64,000 bases of DNA from Flavobacteriales bacterium (GCA_044507815.1 JBIQIX010000001.1:207124-271123); one strand, 5' to 3'; shown: positions 1,515 to 38,881, numbered from the stretch's first letter. The notes: generated by a model not told the origin, from the sequence alone. Numbers and translations are program-made.

Positions 1515-2782
1515 TGCCGTTGCTGTACGACCTGGGCATCGGTGCGTACCAGGCTGGCATCCGCTTGGTGGCCGCATGGAACCCGAAGGCCAAGGCATGG
1601 GTGCAGGGCAGGAAGAAAAGCTGGGACCGGCTGGAACAGGTGGCCCCGCAACTGCAAGGTTGCCTATGGATGCACTGTGCCAGCGTGGGCGAGTTTGAGC
1701 AGGGGAGGCCTGTGCTGGAGGCGATCAAGGCCCAGCGCCCGGAGCTGCCGGTGCTGCTGACCTTCTTCAGCCCCAGCGGCTATGAGGCGCGGAAAAATGA
1801 ACCGATGGCCACGCATGTGGAGTACCTGCCGCCGGACAGCCGCGCCAATGCCGAGCGCCTGTTGTTGTTGGTGAAGCCGGCCGCCGCCGTGTTCGTGAAG
1901 TATGAGTTCTGGTACCACCATCTGCATGCGCTTTGCCGACACAACGTGCCCGTGTTCCTCATCGCCGCGCTGTTCCGCAGGGATCAACCTTTTTTCCGGT
2001 GGTACGGGCGCGCATGGCGACGCATGTTGGGTTTTTACAAGCGGATCTTCACGCAGGATGAAGCATCCTTGAAACTGCTGGAGGAAGGGCTTGGTCTGGA
2101 ACACGCCGAGGCAAGCGGCGACCCACGTTTTGACCGGGTGGCGGCCATTGCCGCGAACAACGAAGAGTTGCCGCCGGCACGCGCTTTCGCGGGGAATGGC
2201 CCGGTGCTGGTATGCGGCAGCACGTGGCCACAGGACGAGGAGGCCATCGCCGTGGCCCTGCGGGGTTTGGCCTCGGATGCGCCCAAGTGCATCGTCGTTC
2301 CGCATGAGCTGCGTGCCGCGCAGTTGGCCGCGATCGAGCGTGATTTCCCCAAGCCCTTGGCCCGCTGGGGCGAACTGGAGCACAGCCCGGTGCAAAGCGT
2401 GGAAGCCCTGCTGGGCGCAGGGCGCCATGGCACCTTGCTGGTGGACCGCATGGGGCTGCTGGCACGCTTGTACCGCTACGGCCGTGTGGCCTACATAGGC
2501 GGTGGCTTCACGGACGGCATCCACAGTGTGCTGGAAGCGGCGGCCTGGGGCGTGCCGGTGATCGTGGGGCCCCGCCACAAAAAGTTTCCTGAAGTGCAAG
2601 GGCTGATCGATGCAGGGGCAGGGCAGGAGGTGCGTAACGCAGCGGAGCTGCAAGCATCCCTGGGCCGATGGCTGGGGGATCCGCAGGCGCTCAGGAAAGC
2701 TTCCGACGCGGCGGCCCGCTTTGTGAATGAGCGGAAGGGGGGCGCCGGGCGGGTGGCAGGCGCGGTGTTGGCGGCCATGTGA
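1514..2782 (+). CDS. waaA: 3-deoxy-D-manno-octulosonic acid (Kdo) transferase
   Basis: 422-aa ORF with N-terminal WMHCASVGEFEQGRP motif typical of KdtA/WaaA; C-terminal glycosyltransferase fold. Confidence 0.8.
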   Translation: MPLLYDLGIGAYQAGIRLVAAWNPKAKAWVQGRKKSWDRLEQVAPQLQGCLWMHCASVGEFEQGRPVLEAIKAQRPELPVLLTFFSPSGYEARKNEPMATHVEYLPPDSRANAERLLLLVKPAAAVFVKYEFWYHHLHALCRHNVPVFLIAALFRRDQPFFRWYGRAWRRMLGFYKRIFTQDEASLKLLEEGLGLEHAEASGDPRFDRVAAIAANNEELPPARAFAGNGPVLVCGSTWPQDEEAIAVALRGLASDAPKCIVVPHELRAAQLAAIERDFPKPLARWGELEHSPVQSVEALLGAGRHGTLLVDRMGLLARLYRYGRVAYIGGGFTDGIHSVLEAAAWGVPVIVGPRHKKFPEVQGLIDAGAGQEVRNAAELQASLGRWLGDPQALRKASDAAARFVNERKGGAGRVAGAVLAAM

Positions 2783-2804
2783 AAGGCTGCGTAATGGGGT
2801 CCCG

Positions 2805-3170
2805 CTACCTCAACTTCGGATTTTGCCCGTGCCGCAGGGCATCGCGCCGGGTGCGTGTTTCCATCTTCTTCGCCCATGATGCTCCCAGGTCGGTGCCGGT
2901 CTGGTTGGCCAAGCATAGCACCACGAAAAGCACATCCGCCAGTTCCTCGCCGAGGTCCTTGGCCTTGTCGCTTTCCTTTTCGCTTTGCTCGCCGTAGCGG
3001 CGCGCCATGATCCGGCCCACCTCGCCCACCTCTTCGGCAAGCATGGCCATGTTGGTAAGCTCGTTGAAGTAGCGCACGCCCACTTGCTGGATCCATGCAT
3101 CCACCTCGGCCTGCAAGGCGGCCACGTGTTTTTCTGCCGGCATTGGGGCCGGGGCGGGTCGTTTGTTCAT
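2805..3170 (-). CDS. MazG-like nucleotide pyrophosphohydrolase
   Basis: YFNELTNMAMLAEEVGEVGRIMARRYGEQS...KDLGEELADVLFVVLCLANQTG = MazG/NTP-PPase EEXX(E/D) helices; start MNKRP chosen (cat at 3168-3170); 4-nt ATGA overlap with dtd. Confidence 0.7.
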   Translation of the reverse strand: MNKRPAPAPMPAEKHVAALQAEVDAWIQQVGVRYFNELTNMAMLAEEVGEVGRIMARRYGEQSEKESDKAKDLGEELADVLFVVLCLANQTGTDLGASWAKKMETRTRRDALRHGQNPKLR

Positions 3171-30307: not shown

Positions 30308-30494
30308 ACATGGATGAACACGGATTCCAGGGTTTTACCATGGATGAACATGGATGGACACGGATCCGTGGTTGGCATCCATTCGCCGCCAAGCGGCTAA
30401 AAGATCCGTGGTCATCGGTGGGTATCCGTGGTTCGCACTCAATCCGCCGCCAGGCGGATAAATTCGACAAGCCAAATAAAAATCCGTGGTTGCC

Positions 30495-31352
30495 ATGACT
30501 GAAGTGAAACTCATCGAATGCCCCCGCGATGCCATGCAGGGCATCCACCCATTCATCCCCACCCACGTGAAGGTGGATTACCTCAATGGCCTGCTGCGCG
30601 TGGGCTTCGACACCATTGATATCGGCAGCTTTGTAAGTCCCAAGGCCATTCCTCAACTGGCGGACACGGCCGAGGTGCTTGCACGCATCGACATGTCGGC
30701 CACCAAGAGCAAGTTGCTGGTGATCGTGGCCAACGAACGCGGCGCGGAAGAGGCCGTGAAGCATGAAAACGTGGCCTATCTCGGTTATCCGTTCAGCATC
30801 AGCGAAACCTTCCAGCAGCGCAACACCAACACCAGCATCGAGGGCAGTTGGGCGCGCACCGCGCACATCGCGGAAACCGCGCGCAAGGCGGGAAAGGAGC
30901 TGGTGGTGTACATCAGCATGGCCTTCGGCAACCCGTACGGCGATCCATGGAATGAGGACATCGCCATGCAATGGACCGACCGCCTGGTGAATGAGCTCGG
31001 CGTGCGCATCATCGCCCTCAGCGACACCGTGGGCGTGGCCAGGCCGGAAGACATTTCTGCCATGTTCAGCGCGCTGATCCCCGCCATGCCCCAGGTGGAG
31101 TTCGGTGCGCATTTGCACGCCCGCCCGAACAACTGGAAGCCCAAGACCGATGCGGCCTGGGATGCGGGCTGCCGCCGGTTCGACGGTGCGCTCAAGGGCT
31201 ACGGCGGCTGCCCCATGGCCGAGGACGACCTGGTGGGCAACTTGGCGATGGAAGCTTTTGTGAAGGATCTGGAGCAACGCGGTGTGCGTACCGGGCTGGA
31301 CCTAGAACGGTTGCGGAGGAGCGTGTCCGAGGCGGGGACGGTTTTCCCGTAA
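30495..31352 (+). CDS. hydroxymethylglutaryl-CoA lyase
   Basis: …VKLIECPRDAMQG…DTIDIGSFVSPKA… HMGL-like TIM-barrel motifs; ATG 30495 preferred over GTG 30486. Confidence 0.8.
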   Translation: MTEVKLIECPRDAMQGIHPFIPTHVKVDYLNGLLRVGFDTIDIGSFVSPKAIPQLADTAEVLARIDMSATKSKLLVIVANERGAEEAVKHENVAYLGYPFSISETFQQRNTNTSIEGSWARTAHIAETARKAGKELVVYISMAFGNPYGDPWNEDIAMQWTDRLVNELGVRIIALSDTVGVARPEDISAMFSALIPAMPQVEFGAHLHARPNNWKPKTDAAWDAGCRRFDGALKGYGGCPMAEDDLVGNLAMEAFVKDLEQRGVRTGLDLERLRRSVSEAGTVFP

Positions 31353-31518
31353 TACTTGGTGTGTGGCACAGGAAAGATGTAGGGGAGCTTCCCCCTGTGC
31401 AGGCGGCTTTATGATCGTAACTGGCCCTTGTGCTATTTGAACTAATTCACACGGTATCCGATACATTGTATGGACCAGCCTTGATTGGTACCCTCCAATT
31501 CCTATCTTGCGTCTTGTG

Positions 31519-33069
31519 ATGGCTGCCATGCGTTATACCATATTGAGTTGGATCTTGAACCTCTGTTTGGTTCAATGCACCGCGCAGACCGGTGCTGGCA
31601 TAGTCACACCCACGCATGGACAAAGTCTCTTGGAACGATATGCCAACTGGCCCGAGGTATACATGCTGCATCAGCAGCAGGCATTGTTTAGCCCCACGCT
31701 CACCCCGTTCGGCTGGCAGGAAAACCCGGCGGTCACTTCCTTGAAAGAGCAGCTCATGCGTCCCCGCAAGCCCACCATGGCCGAAGAGGTCGCTCAACGG
31801 CAGCAGCAAGCCGCCTTCCCGCCGCAACCGGCGGACCCCAATGCCACCAACGCCAGCCGGAACCCGTGGAACACCCAAGCCCTGCGGAACCCGAACGACG
31901 AACTGCGGGAACTGGCCGCAAACCTCAACGCGGTGGCCACGGTCAATGACCGCATGGACCGCTCGGGTTACTACGCCACGCAAGCGTACAAGGAAGACCT
32001 CCAACGGTACCAGGCCGCCTTCAACCAACTGCAGGACATGCTGGAAGGCCGGGCGGCCCTGTCCATTGCCGATGCCCGCTACATCGTGGAGTCGGCCTAT
32101 GGCGGCCTGCCCATGGACCATCAGGCGTACAAGGCCGAGATCGATCGCTCCGCCAACTTCATCCGGCAATGGATGCACGAGAACGGCATGGACGGCCGGA
32201 ACCCTGATGCCGTCAACCTGGCCATCCAGAAATTCATGGGCGATAGCCTCACCATTCGGAACGGCAAAGGCATGGACCGCTCGCGGACGGCGGGGCTTCC
32301 CACGATGCACGTGCCTTTCAAGTACGACTACATCGACTGCCGGGCCGTTGAGGACCTGCACAACCATTTCCTCACCAAGACCCTGGCCACCGGCACCGGC
32401 CAGTGCCTCACCCTGCCCTATGTCTACCTCGTCCTGGCCGAGGCCCTGGGCGTTGAGGCCCACCTTTCCTTCATGCCGCAGCATGCCTTCATCAAGTACC
32501 GCAACAGCAAGGGCGTCATGGAGAACTACGAGACTACGGTGGACTGGCACATGAGCGACAATGAGTACATGGAAAGGATGCCCGTGATGTCATCCGCACT
32601 GGCCAAAGGGATCTATCTTCAACCCCTGAGCAGGGAGCAAACCGTTGCATCCATGATGATCGACCTCGCGGATTGCTATTACCGGGAACATTGGGTGGCC
32701 GACGGTGCCTTCATGGAGCAGTGCATCGACCATGCCATGCCTTGGTTCAAGAACGGCGAAGGCAACCGGGAGGGATTGTTGCTCCGCAATCTCGTGCGGG
32801 CCTCGCAGTTGGACAGGGTGCTGCAGAAGCAGGGCATAGTTGACCTGGGGCAGATCGCGGGGAACCCGGAGGCGGAACGCGCATACCGCGCTTTCCGCGC
32901 GAGCGCGGATCGTATATCCGAGCTCGGCATCCAGGATTTTCCGGAAGAGGTGTACAATGTCATGCTGGAAGAGCATGATGCGCGGGGGCGATTACAACAA
33001 GCCCAAGGAATAGATACAAAAGCCGCCCGTTCCCTTTTCATTCCTGCAACAAACCCCGCCCACCGATGA
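31519..33069 (+). CDS. secreted transglutaminase-like (papain-like Cys/His/Asp) protein, paralog A
   Basis: Signal peptide MAAMRYTILSWILNLCLVQCTAQT; …GTGQCLTLPYVYLVLAEALGVEAHLSFMPQHAFIKYRN…ENYETT… C…H…acidic pattern; paralogous to next gene. Confidence 0.55.
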   Translation: MAAMRYTILSWILNLCLVQCTAQTGAGIVTPTHGQSLLERYANWPEVYMLHQQQALFSPTLTPFGWQENPAVTSLKEQLMRPRKPTMAEEVAQRQQQAAFPPQPADPNATNASRNPWNTQALRNPNDELRELAANLNAVATVNDRMDRSGYYATQAYKEDLQRYQAAFNQLQDMLEGRAALSIADARYIVESAYGGLPMDHQAYKAEIDRSANFIRQWMHENGMDGRNPDAVNLAIQKFMGDSLTIRNGKGMDRSRTAGLPTMHVPFKYDYIDCRAVEDLHNHFLTKTLATGTGQCLTLPYVYLVLAEALGVEAHLSFMPQHAFIKYRNSKGVMENYETTVDWHMSDNEYMERMPVMSSALAKGIYLQPLSREQTVASMMIDLADCYYREHWVADGAFMEQCIDHAMPWFKNGEGNREGLLLRNLVRASQLDRVLQKQGIVDLGQIAGNPEAERAYRAFRASADRISELGIQDFPEEVYNVMLEEHDARGRLQQAQGIDTKAARSLFIPATNPAHR

Positions 33070-35186
33070 AGGCCGTCCGCGCCCCGCTCCTGTGTCTCGC
33101 CCTGCTGGCCACCACCGCCACATTCGCGGGCCCGGACACGCTTTTCCAACAGGCCTATGCCGAACTGCAGGGCATGCTGGAAGGCAACCAACCCGCCAGC
33201 TTTGAGCGGGCGGTGTACATATCCGAGGCCGCCTACTTGGACGACACGATCGGATATGACAATTTCCGGTCCACGCTGGATGCCTACCAGTACTTCATCG
33301 GGCAGTTGGCCAAGGCGAACGACGGCTCGGACACCATGGACTTCCGCGTGCCGGTACCCCGCACCGGCCGCTTGGACATCCGCACCTTGAAGCATACCGA
33401 GGGGGAGAAGCGGGCGCTCTACCGCAACGTGCTGCACAACTGGGCCATCTTCGCCTTCCTCACCGACACCACCCGGTTCTGGGGCTTTGAGCACCTGCCC
33501 CTCGGCTACCAGTATGCCGACCCCTTCGGCATGCGGGACTGGCGCAATTCACAGGTGACCAACCTCCTTTTCGGCAAGGAGCGCAAGGGCAACTGCTTCG
33601 CGCTGGTGGCGCTGTACAAGATCCTTGCGGACCGCCTGCACAGCGGGGCCTATATCTGCACGGCGCCGCAGCACATCTACATCCAGCACCAGGACCATAA
33701 GGGCGACTGGTACAACGTGGAACTGGCCACCGGCACGCACCCCGGCGACGGATCCATCAAGACCCTGACCTACACGTGGAACGAGGGCATCACGAGCGGC
33801 ATCGCCCTGCGGCGGCTCAAGGAGGAGAGGCAGAACATTGCATTGTGCTTGGTGAACCTGGGCATGGGCCATCAGCACAAATTTGCCAAGCAAGGCGATG
33901 CGTTCGCGCTGCAATGCGCCGACCTTGCACTGAAGCACGACCCGAAGAACCTCAACGCCATGCTGCTGCGCCAGCAGGTGCTGGAAGAGCGGGTGGCCGT
34001 GTATGCTGCGGGGAAGAACCTCACGAAGGTTGAGCAGCTGCGGAAGACTCCTGCTTTCCCGCAACTGGAAGAGCAAGTGGTGCAGTTGAACGCACTGGGC
34101 TACCACCCGATGCCGCGCTACATGCAGGAGATCATCCTGGCTGAATTGGGGCACAGCGACAGGGGGCCGTATATCACCAAGAACCGCACGCCCGATCCCT
34201 TCCCCAGCCTCAAGAACGCGCCCCCCGAGGACAAGCGGTACTCCACGCTCTCGCTCGGGCGGTTTGAGGAAGTGCATGAGCAGAAAAGGGTAGAGGAGTA
34301 TGGCCGGGTGACATTGGATACCGAAGCGAAGCGGATCACGGAGTTCCGTCCCAATGCCCAAGAGGAGCTCCTGATAGACCCGGTGGCCTTCGCGTGGAGC
34401 ATTGACCCGCTGGCGGCGAAGTATCCGATGTATTCGCCGTACCACTTTTCGTCGAACCAACCTATTCATGCCCCTGAATTGGAGGGCATGGAATCCGCAT
34501 GGGACTTGAACTCGCGCGATCCCAACTATCAGAGGATGAGCCCAGCGCAACGCAAGGAGTTTACGGATCGGACCTATGGGCCATTTGCAGATGGGCTTTT
34601 CATGGCAGCTACCGTATCTCCTGCAGGGGTTGCAATGCGTGGTGCATGGGCCGTTGGTGGCTGGCGTGCCCTATTGGGTGTGACAACAAAGGAATTAGTA
34701 GAGGAAGGGGTCAGCCGAGCGTTTCAGAATGTTACGGGCATTCCATTGGTCGTATCGCCGATGGATATGTTACGGGCGGCTCGAAAAGGAAGTAAGTTCA
34801 TCGGCAACCTTGCAGACCTCAAGCCACATGAGCGGCAACGTGCTGCTGAGTATCTGCAAGGTGGTAGTGTGTTGGAGCGCACTGATATCCCAGGTACTGG
34901 GGGGGCTGACTTCAGGATTGATGGAAAGCTGTCGGAGTTCAAATCCCTGCAAGGAGAATCAGTAAATCATACAACTGGGCTGGGGCGACTTCAAGAAGCT
35001 ACAAAAAAACCAGGCGTTCAGGTGATAGACTTAGACATCCGCACTCCAGGGGGGACTTCAAATGACGCAACGACTATCTATGATCGGTTTTCAGGTACCG
35101 ACCAAGGGAAGTCATTCCTTGGTGGAGGCGGGGAAGTACGCATTGCAACACAAGATGGGTTGGTAAGCTTCGGGACTAAACATTAA
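33066..35186 (+). CDS. secreted transglutaminase-like protein, paralog B, with compositionally distinct ~240-aa C-terminal extension (candidate toxin domain)
   Basis: ATGA overlap with paralog A; N-terminal ~450 aa align with paralog A (GNCFALVALYKILADRL…APQHIYIQHQD…WYNVE); from ~34440 GC falls to ~50%. Confidence 0.55.
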   Translation: MKAVRAPLLCLALLATTATFAGPDTLFQQAYAELQGMLEGNQPASFERAVYISEAAYLDDTIGYDNFRSTLDAYQYFIGQLAKANDGSDTMDFRVPVPRTGRLDIRTLKHTEGEKRALYRNVLHNWAIFAFLTDTTRFWGFEHLPLGYQYADPFGMRDWRNSQVTNLLFGKERKGNCFALVALYKILADRLHSGAYICTAPQHIYIQHQDHKGDWYNVELATGTHPGDGSIKTLTYTWNEGITSGIALRRLKEERQNIALCLVNLGMGHQHKFAKQGDAFALQCADLALKHDPKNLNAMLLRQQVLEERVAVYAAGKNLTKVEQLRKTPAFPQLEEQVVQLNALGYHPMPRYMQEIILAELGHSDRGPYITKNRTPDPFPSLKNAPPEDKRYSTLSLGRFEEVHEQKRVEEYGRVTLDTEAKRITEFRPNAQEELLIDPVAFAWSIDPLAAKYPMYSPYHFSSNQPIHAPELEGMESAWDLNSRDPNYQRMSPAQRKEFTDRTYGPFADGLFMAATVSPAGVAMRGAWAVGGWRALLGVTTKELVEEGVSRAFQNVTGIPLVVSPMDMLRAARKGSKFIGNLADLKPHERQRAAEYLQGGSVLERTDIPGTGGADFRIDGKLSEFKSLQGESVNHTTGLGRLQEATKKPGVQVIDLDIRTPGGTSNDATTIYDRFSGTDQGKSFLGGGGEVRIATQDGLVSFGTKH

Positions 35187-35189
35187 GCC

Positions 35190-35432
35190 ATGGCACGCTG
35201 GACCTGTATATGTGGAGAAGTAATGAGCAACTCCAACAATCCTGAAATACAGTACAAGGTGTTTTCGGATGATGAGTGGATTGCATTGATGGATACGCAA
35301 ATCGAAGACCCTGCTCGCGATATCAAATGGCCACGATTTTTCTATTGGCAATGCCCAAAGTGCCGTCGGCTCCATTTCTTCGATCAGAATTTGGATAACC
35401 GGGTCGAAATCTATCGCCCTGAATACCCATGA
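35190..35432 (+). CDS. small zinc-ribbon protein (CxCG…CPKC), tandem paralog 1; candidate immunity/partner protein
   Basis: MARWTCICGEVMSNSNNPEIQYKVFSDDEWIALMDTQIEDP…WQCPKCRRLHFF; ~50% identical to next ORF; low GC. Confidence 0.5.
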   Translation: MARWTCICGEVMSNSNNPEIQYKVFSDDEWIALMDTQIEDPARDIKWPRFFYWQCPKCRRLHFFDQNLDNRVEIYRPEYP

Positions 35433-35508
35433 GCATGCAGTGCCTATCCTCGTGTCCCATTTTGGGAGATCAGATGGCCCTTCAACATTTACTGGACAAT
35501 GAGCTACC

Positions 35509-35790
35509 ATGGCTAGAATCACTTGCCGGTGCGGTCGAGCATTAAGTAACTCAAATCATCCGGAGGTTGAGTATCAGGTATTTAATGATGCCGAATGGCA
35601 TAGGCTAATGGCATCGAAGATTAACGACCCATTAGTCGATATCGAATGGCCCGAACTCTCATTCTGGAAGTGTTCCCGATGTGGCAGACTACACCTGTTC
35701 AATGGGGATAGTGACATGCCAATAGCCGCCTATGTTATCGAGCCCATATCGCCTGGAGAATCAGGTTTGGATTCCCAAGGTCAAGGATGA
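35509..35790 (+). CDS. small zinc-ribbon protein (CxCG…CSRC), tandem paralog 2
   Basis: MARITCRCGRALSNSNHPEVEYQVFNDAEWHRLMASKINDP…WKCSRCGRLHLF; paralog of 35190..35432. Confidence 0.5.
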   Translation: MARITCRCGRALSNSNHPEVEYQVFNDAEWHRLMASKINDPLVDIEWPELSFWKCSRCGRLHLFNGDSDMPIAAYVIEPISPGESGLDSQGQG

Positions 35791-35866
35791 GGGTTGTATA
35801 CCATCGACATGGGCGCAAAAGAAGGCGCTGCCCCTTTGAGCTTCTGCAACATGGAACGTCAAATCA

Positions 35867-36253
35867 TTGATGGTCAGTAAGGCCAAGGATGTAGTGTATT
35901 TGGAAACCGAGTTCGTGAAGTTGGTGCGACACTACTTCGCCTTCCTTAGGGACATAGGCTACGCTGAACCAACCATTGAGTGGCAAGAATCGGCCTTCTT
36001 TGTCTCTTGGATCGACTTAAACTACGCGGCTCCTTCTCTTAATCGAAATTGCTGTGTTTCCCTGTTCCTTAAGCAGGATGAGGGTAGTATACAACTCTCT
36101 CTGTTACAAAACGAGTATCGTACCCTCAACGACTATCTCGACTTTCAGATGTATATGAAGAAGCGCGTTGGAACACCGGTTCCACGGACCTTCCCGTTAT
36201 CAAGCGCTCAGAGAGTGACCTGGTCCGAGCATTCGAGGAGGTCATCCGCTTGA
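35867..36253 (+). CDS. small hypothetical protein in low-GC tract (possibly 3'-frameshifted)
   Basis: 128-aa ORF, AT-richer codon usage; a protein-like reading (…SDLVRAFEEVIRLNAQALREHGRGLVDGSAWEAGYYQRKD) continues in another frame to 36330. Confidence 0.35.
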   Translation: MMVSKAKDVVYLETEFVKLVRHYFAFLRDIGYAEPTIEWQESAFFVSWIDLNYAAPSLNRNCCVSLFLKQDEGSIQLSLLQNEYRTLNDYLDFQMYMKKRVGTPVPRTFPLSSAQRVTWSEHSRRSSA

Positions 36254-36650
36254 ATGCCCAAGCACTTCGCGAGCATGGCCGAGGGCTGGTTGATGGTAGT
36301 GCATGGGAGGCCGGGTACTACCAGCGGAAAGATTAACCGGTAATGTTCCAGATTGTTGCATGACAACTTCCATAAAAACCCAGAATGAGGCTTCAATGAT
36401 GTGCAGGTCAATCGATCCCTTCCCCAGCCTCAATGTAAGCTCCCCCTGATCAGGTACACGGGTTGGTAAAGGTCGGCATTTCGCCGGGATGTTTGTTTGG
36501 TAGTTTCTCGATCTTTGCTGTACCGGTGATAACGGAAGCAGGCACTGCTGGAGAGCAACCTGCCAGGGATAGGCCGGTGACCGGAGGATGAACATGGGTA
36601 TGGGCGATTTGCCCTGCCCCGTCCTTTGGTCCAATGCCTTGAAAAACTCA

Positions 36651-37514
36651 TTACGCGGCAGGCTGGTCCAGCAGGAAGGTTGGAAAGTGCGTCCGGCTCC
36701 CGGTAAATGCGGCCAGCATCGCCCCGTACTTCATCAGGAACTCCCGCGGGGTGAGGTCAAGCAGGGAATCGTGTGGTCGTTCTTGGTTGTAGCTCCAGAT
36801 GAACTGTGCCGTAAGGGCGTGCAGTTGCTCAAGGTCCTCGAACAGGTAGGCATCAAGCACTTCCTCCCGGTAGGTCCTGTTGAAGCGCTCGACCAGACCG
36901 TTCTGCATGGGACGCCCCTTCTCGATGAAGGTCAGCCCGATGCCATTGCGCTCTGCCCAGAGTTCCAATTCATGGGCAATGAACTCCGGGCCATTGTCCA
37001 CGCGCAAACGTTCGGGCTTGCCACGCCACTCGATCAGCTTGTCCAGTGCACGGATCACGTACTGCGACCGGATCGAGGTGTCCACCGTGATGTTCAGGGC
37101 CTCGCGGCCGAAGTCGTCGATCACGTTGAAGGTGCGCACGTTGGTGGCGTTCAAAAGCCGGTCGGCCATGAAATCCATGCTCCAAGTGATGTTCGGACCG
37201 ATGGGAAGGCACAGTGGTTGCTTCACTCGCTCCGGCACGCGTCTTTTGGTGGGCCGGCGCAGGTTGAGCCCGGCCGTGGTGTAGAGCCGGTGCAGCCGTT
37301 TGTGGTTCACCACGCGGCCATCCTTGCGCATGCGCTTGTACACCTTCCAAAAGCCCCAACTGGGCTTCTTCGTCACCCAGGCATTCATGTGCTCGATCAC
37401 CTCTATGTCGTCCTTGGGGCTGGGCACATAGCGGTATACGCTTTGGCTCAACCCCAGCAGTTTGCAGACCCGCCGAACACTGTGCTTGCACTGCGTCACA
37501 AGCCAATGTGCCAT
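36651..37514 (-). CDS. IS3-family transposase OrfB (DDE integrase core)
   Basis: …ITWSMDFM…VDNGPEF…LVERFNRTYREEVLD… rve-domain signature. Confidence 0.85.
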   Translation of the reverse strand: MAHWLVTQCKHSVRRVCKLLGLSQSVYRYVPSPKDDIEVIEHMNAWVTKKPSWGFWKVYKRMRKDGRVVNHKRLHRLYTTAGLNLRRPTKRRVPERVKQPLCLPIGPNITWSMDFMADRLLNATNVRTFNVIDDFGREALNITVDTSIRSQYVIRALDKLIEWRGKPERLRVDNGPEFIAHELELWAERNGIGLTFIEKGRPMQNGLVERFNRTYREEVLDAYLFEDLEQLHALTAQFIWSYNQERPHDSLLDLTPREFLMKYGAMLAAFTGSRTHFPTFLLDQPAA

Positions 37515-37533
37515 TCCCGCTTCTCGACGAGCC

Positions 37534-37800
37534 CTAGGGCTTTTTTCCCAGGATCTCCTTTAGGATGGCCTTGTCCAGGGTGAGGTCGGCCACCTTCAGC
37601 TTCAACTTGGTGTTCTCCTCCCGCAAGGCGCGCAGCTCCTTGAGTTCGCTCACGCCCATGCCGCCATACTTGGCCTTCCACTGGTAGAAGGTGGGCTGGC
37701 TCACGCCATGTTCCCTGCAGATCTCGGCCACCTTGCGGCCTTGTTCATGTTCGCGCAGCATCGCCACGATCTGCGCTTCCGTCCATTTGCTCTTCTTCAT
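37534..37800 (-). CDS. IS3-family transposase OrfA (HTH)
   Basis: MKKSKWTEAQIVAMLREHEQGRKVAEICREHGVSQPTFYQWKAKY… canonical IS3 OrfA; ends …LKEILGKKP at the AAAAAAG site. Confidence 0.85.
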   Translation of the reverse strand: MKKSKWTEAQIVAMLREHEQGRKVAEICREHGVSQPTFYQWKAKYGGMGVSELKELRALREENTKLKLKVADLTLDKAILKEILGKKP

Positions 37801-38050
37801 TGTTCCAAAGTTCAGGTGTTGGTGTGGATCCTACTTATCCACGCACCTGATTTCGGGGGAGCTTACAATGCAGCTCGAATCAGCGGTTGCGCGAACCCCT
37901 TCCCGGTATTGGGCCTAGGCACGGCGGCCAACGCCTTGTGTTGCATTTAGGAGCTATGCTGGAACCATGCACCACCAACTGCCGGATAATCCGTCAGTGC
38001 AAGGTCGGGGAAAGTGTCATAACTTTGCTCTGTCAATACCCATTCACACC

Positions 38051-38881
38051 ATGAGTGCACATCCCTACTTCGGCCCCAACATCAAGCTGCTGCGCACACG
38101 CCGCGGCCGCTCGCAGGAAGAAACCGCCACCGGACTGGACGTGAAACGCTCCAGCTGGAGCGGCTATGAGAACGGCAGCGCCGAGCCCTCGTTGGACCTG
38201 CTGGTGCGCATCAGCAGCTACTTCCGCGTGGGACTCGACCGCCTGCTGAAGGACGACCTTACCCAACTGAGCGAAAGCCAGCTCAGCATCTTGGAGCGCG
38301 GTGGCGATGTGGACCTCAGCGGCAGGCGCCTTCGCGTGCTGGCCAGTACCGTGGACCAGGCCGACCGCGAGAACATCGAGGTGGTGCACGAAAAGGCGAA
38401 AGCGGGGTACGCCCTCGGCTATGCCGATCCCGAGTACATCAGCGTGCTGCCCACCTTCCAAATGCCCTTCCTCAGCCGCGACCGCAAGTACCGCACCTTC
38501 CAGATCAGTGGCGACAGCATGCCACCGGTGGGCGAAGGCTCGTGGGTGACCGGGGAGTATGTGCAGAACTGGCAGACCATCCGCGATGGCCAGCCCTACA
38601 TCATTGTTACCAAGGAGGACGGCATCGTGTTCAAAGTGGTGTACAACCAGCTGAAGACCACCGGAGGGCTGTTGCTGTGCAGCACCAACCCGGCCTATCC
38701 GCCCTACGAGGTGCCCATCGCCGATGTGTTCGAGGTGTGGAAGTTCGTCAACTTCATCAGCAGCGAGCTGCCCGAGCCCAACCTCAGCCGCGATGAACTT
38801 TCGCGCAGCGTGATGGACCTGCGCAAGGAAGTGGGCCAATTGCGCATGGCCATGGAGAAGCAGGGCCGCTTGGCACTGTGA
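38051..38881 (+). CDS. XRE-family HTH regulator fused to S24 (LexA/UmuD-like) peptidase domain
   Basis: N-terminal HTH_3 (…LRTRRGRSQEETATGLDVKRSSWSGYENG…), C-terminal …FQISGDSMPP… Ser nucleophile motif of S24. Confidence 0.7.
   Translation: MSAHPYFGPNIKLLRTRRGRSQEETATGLDVKRSSWSGYENGSAEPSLDLLVRISSYFRVGLDRLLKDDLTQLSESQLSILERGGDVDLSGRRLRVLASTVDQADRENIEVVHEKAKAGYALGYADPEYISVLPTFQMPFLSRDRKYRTFQISGDSMPPVGEGSWVTGEYVQNWQTIRDGQPYIIVTKEDGIVFKVVYNQLKTTGGLLLCSTNPAYPPYEVPIADVFEVWKFVNFISSELPEPNLSRDELSRSVMDLRKEVGQLRMAMEKQGRLAL

Follow-up and report, generated by a model that had tools for sequence, protein, structure and literature searches.

A stretch of 64,000 nucleotides (nt) of Flavobacteriales DNA (GCA_044507815.1 JBIQIX010000001.1:207124-271123), referred to below as the window, was found to carry a pair of paralogous genes, A and B, of which B ends in an exchangeable nuclease domain and is followed by two small paralogous genes. 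The locus is very probably a polymorphic nuclease toxin with its cognate immunity protein, functional now or until recently. The initial annotation had proposed a polymorphic toxin/immunity cassette at this place and the proposal was borne out: the open reading frames (ORFs), the drop in GC content, the small downstream ORFs and the insertion sequence of the IS3 family are all present as it had described. Three findings that could have spoken against such a cassette came out in its favour, namely orthologs of B differ in their C-terminal domain, that domain belongs to a toxin family and is not a benign module, and the first downstream ORF has no housekeeping role but accompanies the toxin domain, be it in Rhs proteins, in orphan modules or elsewhere. 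The concept of such loci and the toxin family to which the tip belongs are of an already known kind, whereas the A/B carrier is poorly described and the immunity family is unannotated.

Genes A (520 amino acids, aa) and B (706 aa) overlap by 4 nt, as read from their coordinates, and the first small gene starts 3 nt past the stop codon of B. The parts of the locus, in coordinates of the window, are as follows.

31507..33069, + strand: gene A, the non-polymorphic paralog and putative partner of the toxin carrier (Pfam PF13369; hydrophobic N-terminal segment)
33066..35186, + strand: gene B, a 706-aa polymorphic toxin protein composed of a predicted signal peptide, body, junction, linker and nuclease (ORF)
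33066..33134, + strand: predicted Sec signal peptide of B, aa 1-23, MKAVRAPLLCLALLATTATFAGP (hydrophobicity)
33135..34373, + strand: conserved body of B, a transglutaminase-like core and then a helical domain resembling tetratricopeptide repeats (TPR)
34374..34490, + strand: junction, the distal part of the Rhs-associated core motif, IDPVAFAWSIDPLAAKYPMYSPYHFSSNQPIHAPELEG (read from sequence)
34397..34441, + strand: crossover zone of the cassette exchange (limits of the homology to loci L009 and L001)
34491..34757, + strand: helical, partly hydrophobic linker (conserved with the toxin in Rhs and orphan contexts)
34758..35183, + strand: PD-(D/E)xK nuclease toxin domain of the CdiA_C (PF18451) family
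35190..35432, + strand: predicted cognate immunity protein, 80 aa (position; homologs behind the same toxin)
35509..35790, + strand: second, diverged immunity paralog, 93 aa (49 % identity to the first)

The composition of the DNA changes abruptly inside gene B. The GC content is approximately 0.62 in the body, 0.52 in the C-terminal region of B and 0.46-0.49 in the small ORFs, while GC at the third codon position is 0.85 in codons 1-458 of B versus 0.48 in codons 460-706. The resulting low-GC island of foreign composition extends from 34442 to 36412 (GC 0.46-0.52). The initial annotation had placed the break near 34440, and this proved exact: the DNA homology to the closest related locus (L009, see below) ends at 34441.

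Homologs of the tip (residues 475-706 of B) are few. They were found at the end of a true Rhs protein in L001 and similarly in L047, in orphan modules behind an Rhs gene in L008, L042 and L048, and on a short secreted protein in L005. All eight tip homologs match the CdiA_C family, PF18451 (best E-value 4.5e-07), and the same annotation was found precomputed on two of them. The motifs F-x(2)-DGK-x(2)-EFK and ERQRAAEY are invariant in the eight-sequence alignment and D615 is present in seven of the eight sequences; E595 or E604, D615, E624 and K626, located in the motifs ERQRAAEY, ADF-x-IDGK and EFK, are the candidates for the catalytic residues. The stretch GADFRIDGKLSEFKS, which the initial annotation had tentatively taken for a PD-(D/E)xK-like motif, contains the D...ExK catalytic residues. 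The tip was modelled as a PD-(D/E)xK nuclease, and in the fold comparison it came closest to the C-terminal toxin region (CT) of CdiA of Burkholderia pseudomallei 1026b. The PF18451 members CdiA-CTII 1026b and Myxococcus SitA3 are tRNases (PMC9990079, PMC8546572, PMC9086364) and, by analogy with them, the window tip is most probably a tRNase as well. The linker (residues 476-564) accompanies the nuclease in every context seen. It was modelled as helices with low confidence and reaches a Kyte-Doolittle (KD) hydropathy of 1.1 around residues 515-521, and by analogy with the entry domains of CdiA-CT (PMC9086364) it is a candidate translocation or entry region.

The small ORFs behind B had been described as duplicated, and this applies to the first two, whose products are 49 % identical paralogs (E-value 2e-30), but not to the third, which is unrelated to them. 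The product of 35190..35432 has no signal peptide and contains four cysteines in a zinc-ribbon-like pattern, CxCG...CPxC. In L001 and L005 the gene directly behind the homologous toxin encodes a protein 78-80 % identical to it, and in L008 one with 31 % identity; in L042-L044, L047 and L048 the toxin domain is succeeded by relatives with 49-65 % identity. Outside the window the small protein directly follows this toxin in six contexts, two of them with a true Rhs protein (L001, L047), three in orphan Rhs modules (L008, L042, L048) and one behind the short secreted protein (L005); the toxin and the small protein are co-inherited. Because of its position, this co-inheritance and its cytoplasmic location the product of 35190..35432 is predicted to be the cognate immunity protein, and the lack of a signal peptide fits a toxin acting in the cytoplasm. 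It is presumably unrelated to CdiI of strain 1026b. The closest database relative of the 35509..35790 product is only 55 % identical to it, and this gene is probably an orphan or spare immunity gene.

For the immunity family neither a Pfam model nor, by sequence, a solved relative was found, a profile search of PDB giving matches at chance level. A word-indexed search found one homolog and an exhaustive profile search was required, by which the zinc-ribbon-like family was found to comprise at least 150 representative clusters; among the matches listed, stand-alone proteins of 75-100 aa form the majority, alongside some tandem fusions. In the search for loci an alignment of 45 sequences was too diverse, and one of five sequences yielded three loci. 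The tandem fusions (P0133, P0134, P0154 and others) are approximately 160-175 aa long and contain two copies of the domain, which echoes the two separate, duplicated immunity genes in the window.

The comparison with two related loci made it possible to map the exchange of the tip. The best match of B, P0001, is 87 % identical to it through '...LIDPVAFAWSIDPLAAKYP' and then, past the same junction, continues into a different domain with a HELGH (HExxH-type) motif. The closest of the loci, L009, which is the locus of P0001, is syntenic with the window (a major facilitator superfamily transporter, pyrD, a hydroxymethylglutaryl-CoA (HMG-CoA)-lyase-like gene, A and B) and its DNA is 89 % identical to that of the window from 30404 to 34441, where the homology stops. 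The HExxH-containing tip which follows in L009 has 40 % GC and is succeeded by an ORF for a lipoprotein-like protein of 145 aa with 32 % GC, past which lies a 173-nt remnant of the body gene (8253-8425 of L009, corresponding to window 34066-34238, 91 % identity). The window tip, in turn, is 71 % identical at the DNA level to the cassette of L001 over window positions 34397-35398. The L009 and L001 homologies overlap solely in 34397-34441, a segment encoding the conserved SIDPLAAKYPMYSPY motif, and hence the crossover zone was placed there. The tip has been exchanged in a close relative at this mapped junction.

Both loci showed additional features of their own. In L001 (27-1346) the Rhs gene with the homologous toxin carries an in-frame stop inside the junction motif (...SIDPLTAK*PMYSPY...), at the same spot as the crossover zone of the window; it could be a sequencing error, the mark of a pseudogene or a sign of recent recombination. 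The HELGH tip of L009 (7151-8217) is zincin-like, with weak Pfam support, and the 145-aa ORF behind it has no Pfam family, so that the two form a second, unannotated candidate toxin-immunity pair. A lipoprotein-type ORF behind a metallopeptidase-like tip would fit a toxin acting in the periplasm, and this served as an independent consistency check. Upstream of the HMG-CoA-lyase-like gene the window has a single copy (30404-30459) of a 56-nt intergenic element of which L009 has four (2635-3140), with a spacing of 150 nt and 84-88 % identity; it looks like a tandem repeat or a repetitive extragenic palindromic element.

The junction at which B was recombined occurs in two forms. The long form, IDPVAFAYDFGARMYDARLGRFLSVDP...SPY...NNPI...DPDG, was found in 80 of 116 family members, and proteins with this form pass the TIGR03696 (Rhs_assc_core) model at 35-46 bits, the cutoff being 32.5. 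The remaining 36 of the 116 have the short form seen in the window, in which only the distal half of the core motif is kept. B itself fails TIGR03696 and has no match in NCBIfam, the distal core motif being visible by eye only, and the NCBIfam search was likewise empty for the other window proteins. A YD-repeat shell was not detected in B, which had no RHS_repeat match in Pfam at E-values up to 1. The initial annotation had set the body apart from classic delivery scaffolds such as Rhs, but some relation to Rhs does exist, since the recombination joint at the end of the body is the distal part of the Rhs-associated core motif. It is possible that the junction is also a site of autoproteolytic release.

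A search with the whole B protein returned at least 241 homologs, nearly all of 650-800 aa, that match only the first 62-70 % of the query. They come from Bacteroidota metagenomes and metagenome-assembled genomes (MAGs), and a scan of species-representative genomes gave 33 loci with the family, all in Bacteroidota MAGs. When the C-termini of the 116 family members were cut after the junction motif, they fell into 54 unrelated clusters, the window tip being a singleton. Precomputed Pfam annotations on the homolog tips include CHAP, Peptidase_M23, M15, Toxin-JAB1, Tox-MPTase3 and M91, and most of the tips have none. Orphan fragments of B, approximately 350-380 aa long, were found downstream of the full-length B gene in L023, L025 and L029; they start near body residue 345 and span the junction into another tip. 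Similar fragments are present in L038, L040 and L041, and they are orphan cassettes of the same kind as those at Rhs loci and at loci of contact-dependent growth inhibition (CDI). In the largest C-terminal cluster, with 15 members (P0010, P0067, P0075, P0080, P0083, P0102, P0103 and others), two kinds of tip start were noted right after the junction, one with a conserved CPICPWLDAVVDIGF..YD motif and one with a ELPIIPLLLKAGAGGAAD-type hydrophobic start, either of which may be a shared pre-toxin or entry module.

The carrier part of the locus consists of the body of B and of protein A. The two are 24 % identical over 352 aligned positions (B 27-367, A 168-494, E-value 2e-21); they are paralogs, as had been claimed, but the relationship is more distant, and its span shorter, than in the initial annotation, which gave approximately 450 aa. 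A passes the Pfam model Transglut_core2 (PF13369) with 28.9 bits (cutoff 23.5), whereas B, though a paralog of A, has no PF13369 match in Pfam. Matches of B to NfeD, Fis1 and similar Pfam families were below threshold and were taken as noise. The first 23 residues of B, where hydrophobicity over 19 residues reaches its maximum for the protein (KD 1.64), are predicted from the sequence to be a Sec signal peptide, and in 58 of 120 family members a lipobox-like signal stands in place of a plain signal peptide. Of 34 loci, 30 have gene A as the immediate upstream neighbour of B, and the remaining four are short or truncated contigs. When all ORFs of the 34 loci were clustered (flanks up to 10 kilobases), no conserved neighbour was found except A; linkage to a type VI secretion system (T6SS), a type IX secretion system (T9SS) or CdiB was considered and rejected, as the A/B pair alone is common to these loci. 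A is presumably a dedicated partner for the export, surface display or processing of B.

The body of B was modelled as a transglutaminase/TPR fold, for which menin was the best structural match. Cys177, His203 and Glu219 are invariant in 44 B proteins, and the equivalent triad of A (Cys300, His326 and Glu342) is invariant in 27 of 27 A proteins. This conservation in both proteins, together with the active enzymes among the structural neighbours of the body (LapG, TglA, PeiW and PNGase) and the Tox-transglutaminase toxin domains described by Zhang et al. 2012 (PMC3482391), would agree with another explanation, in which the body itself is the effector and acts on the cell envelope as an active cysteine peptidase, transglutaminase or amidase, the tip is an accessory and B is a bifunctional toxin. 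This was considered unlikely, and the nuclease tip is preferred as the effector.

The right edge of the low-GC island bears traces of further rearrangement. Its features are the following.

35867..36337, + strand: third small gene, apparently frameshifted near 36170-36250 (three-frame translations)
36413..36433, + strand: 21-nt remnant of the body gene, marking where the low-GC island ends on the right (exact copy of 34193-34213)
36426..37875, - strand: IS3-family element, with orfA at 37800..37534 and orfB at 37514..36651 (Pfam, inverted repeats)

The third small ORF was initially delimited as 35867..36253, and a coding-like frame runs on from it to about 36337 without a start codon; the whole appears to be one frameshifted gene of approximately 155 aa, which occupies the part of the low-GC island that separates the body remnant from the immunity paralogs. 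After repair of the frameshift it had no Pfam match, and no relatives were found in the fetched loci or in the metagenome scan. Possibly it is an immunity gene from a different cassette that has decayed. The 21-nt exact repeat, which abuts the end of the IS3 element, is found by blastn as a 37-nt match with 86 % identity (E-value 1e-4). It represents what is left of a displaced or orphan 3' fragment of the body gene and is the counterpart of the longer remnant of L009, which occupies the same relative position. The IS3 element encodes HTH_Tnp_1 in orfA and rve and rve_3 in orfB, has 21-nt inverted repeats (36426-36446 and 37855-37875, 86 % complementary) and carries a slippery heptamer, A AAA AAG, at the end of orfA, as read from the sequence. 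It is apparently intact, with possible AAT direct repeats at both ends, and with a GC content of 0.58 it resembles the host more closely in this respect than it does the toxin island.

Directly past the IS3 element a gene (37967-38881, + strand) encodes a LexA/CI-like protein with an XRE helix-turn-helix and a Peptidase_S24 domain; a match of this protein to Imm-NTF2-2 was below threshold and was taken as noise. L009 has no counterpart of this gene and carries a gene for a dicarboxylate/amino-acid symporter-like protein instead, which indicates that the region downstream of the toxin island has also been rearranged.

The frameshifted third ORF, the IS3 element abutting the 21-nt remnant and the foreign GC content, not yet ameliorated, could be taken to mean that the locus is a decayed, non-functional relic, a cassette that was acquired but is no longer used, with the insertion and the frameshift as marks of ongoing erosion. 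A, B and both immunity genes are nevertheless intact ORFs, all conserved catalytic and cysteine residues are present, and the spacing expected of translationally coupled genes has been kept both between A and B and between B and the immunity gene. A relic of this kind is quite improbable.

The proposed toxin with its immunity protein has also to be weighed against several observations that do not support it. The window toxin domain by itself scores 18.2 bits (E-value 0.0029) with PF18451, below the gathering cutoff of 26.6, and PDB searches with the sequence of the C-terminal region and with its profile gave matches at chance level only. PD-(D/E)xK toxins of CDI systems include DNases as well as tRNases (PMC9086364), and for this reason a DNase remains an alternative as to the substrate. 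Immunity relatives with 37-40 % identity (L045, L049) are not located behind a recognisable PF18451 domain, which restricts the demonstrated pairing with the toxin to relatives 31-80 % identical. The frameshifted ORF and the IS3 element show that the island is partly decaying. Finally, no secretion-system gene is linked to the locus in the 34 loci and flanks examined, and delivery to the target cell is therefore conjectural.

It is highly improbable that the locus is an intracellular toxin-antitoxin or abortive-infection module and not an interbacterial weapon: although the nuclease adjoins a small, predicted neutralising protein, a mobile element flanks the island and the XRE/S24 repressor gene is nearby, signal peptides or lipoprotein signals are present on B and its relatives, an exported body of 470 aa and an Rhs-core junction precede the toxin in the fusion, Rhs proteins and orphan arrays contain the same cassette, and the gene order of toxin followed by immunity, together with the polymorphic tips, is that of polymorphic toxins.

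If the locus is a polymorphic nuclease toxin, the following mode of action may be proposed. B would be exported by means of its Sec signal peptide, the transglutaminase/TPR body serving as the carrier, which is joined at the truncated Rhs-core motif to an exchangeable tip made of the helical linker and the nuclease, and A would assist B. Release of the tip might take place at the Rhs-core motif or be brought about by the Cys-His-Glu site, and the nuclease would arrest the growth of neighbouring bacteria without immunity. In the producer cell the cytoplasmic 35190..35432 protein would bind and neutralise the nuclease. The tip and the immunity gene were probably acquired together by horizontal transfer, with recombination at 34397-34441 replacing an earlier tip.

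A bolder proposal concerns the carrier. A and B may constitute a previously unrecognised, self-contained route by which Bacteroidota export, display or release polymorphic toxins independently of T6SS, T9SS and CDI; this is possible but rather doubtful at present. The Cys-His-Glu triad would then be a releasing protease or a covalent anchoring enzyme, the four-cysteine protein would represent a new immunity family for PF18451 nucleases, and the logic of the system would be comparable to that of MafA/MafB or to SitA outer-membrane exchange.

Polymorphic toxins influence which bacteria coexist, and in Bacteroidota they are known chiefly from T6SS and Rhs systems. The locus described here reveals a large carrier family, with at least 241 proteins and at least 54 tip types, which has no linked secretion machinery. 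The A/B family makes the exit of Sec-exported toxins and their entry into target cells concretely testable, the B family supplies a catalogue of mostly unannotated toxin tips, and the zinc-ribbon-like proteins, in at least 150 representative clusters, are candidate nuclease inhibitors.

Compared with known systems, the window tip is only approximately 10 % identical to CdiA-CTII 1026b (PDB 4G6V) in the structural alignment, and its carrier is neither a CdiA protein of the two-partner secretion (TPS) type nor a SitA lipoprotein. No Pfam match to the features of CDI systems (TPS domain, filamentous haemagglutinin repeats, VENN/pre-toxin motif) was found in B, and there is no conserved adjacent cdiB. 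The likeness of B to menin, a eukaryotic nuclear scaffold without the catalytic Cys, is one of fold only (9 % identity), and for the bacterial Transglut_core2/SirB1-like proteins no function has been established (PMC10318531).

The initial annotation had suggested an undescribed family, which is only partly true: Zhang et al. 2012 (Biol Direct 7:18; PMC3482391) had already observed that polymorphic toxins can have a transglutaminase domain at the N-terminus, and described an 'inactive transglutaminase' after the signal peptide of Sec-dependent polymorphic toxins, Bacteroidetes examples included. In these proteins, for which an anchoring or peptide-binding role was proposed, the catalytic residues are lost and an RHS repeat array follows. 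The window protein shares with this group the transglutaminase-fold domain placed directly after the signal peptide, and differs in the invariant Cys-His-Glu, the lack of a repeat array and the obligatory upstream gene A, which is not mentioned there. The two groups could overlap, as the change of Asp to Glu may have been counted there as a loss. The carrier family, with its retained triad, obligatory paralog and Rhs core without a shell, has at best been sketched in the searchable literature.

In gene organisation the locus resembles MafA/MafB of Neisseria, where a Sec-exported toxin B with a conserved N-terminus and variable tips is likewise combined with an upstream partner A, immunity genes and orphan cassettes, and where MafA is required for the secretion of MafB (PMC7738311). 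The likeness is limited to this organisation: MafA and MafB are not paralogs, and no sequence relationship to A and B was found. Although the YD shell of Rhs toxins is replaced here by the transglutaminase/TPR body and no VgrG, PAAR or T6SS gene is linked, the locus shares with these toxins the logic of exchangeable cassettes, the junction motif ...DPLxxKYPxxSPY...NNPI...DPDG as the recombination joint, the orphan modules located downstream and the same toxin-immunity pair, which is carried by true Rhs proteins or their loci in L001, L047 and L008.

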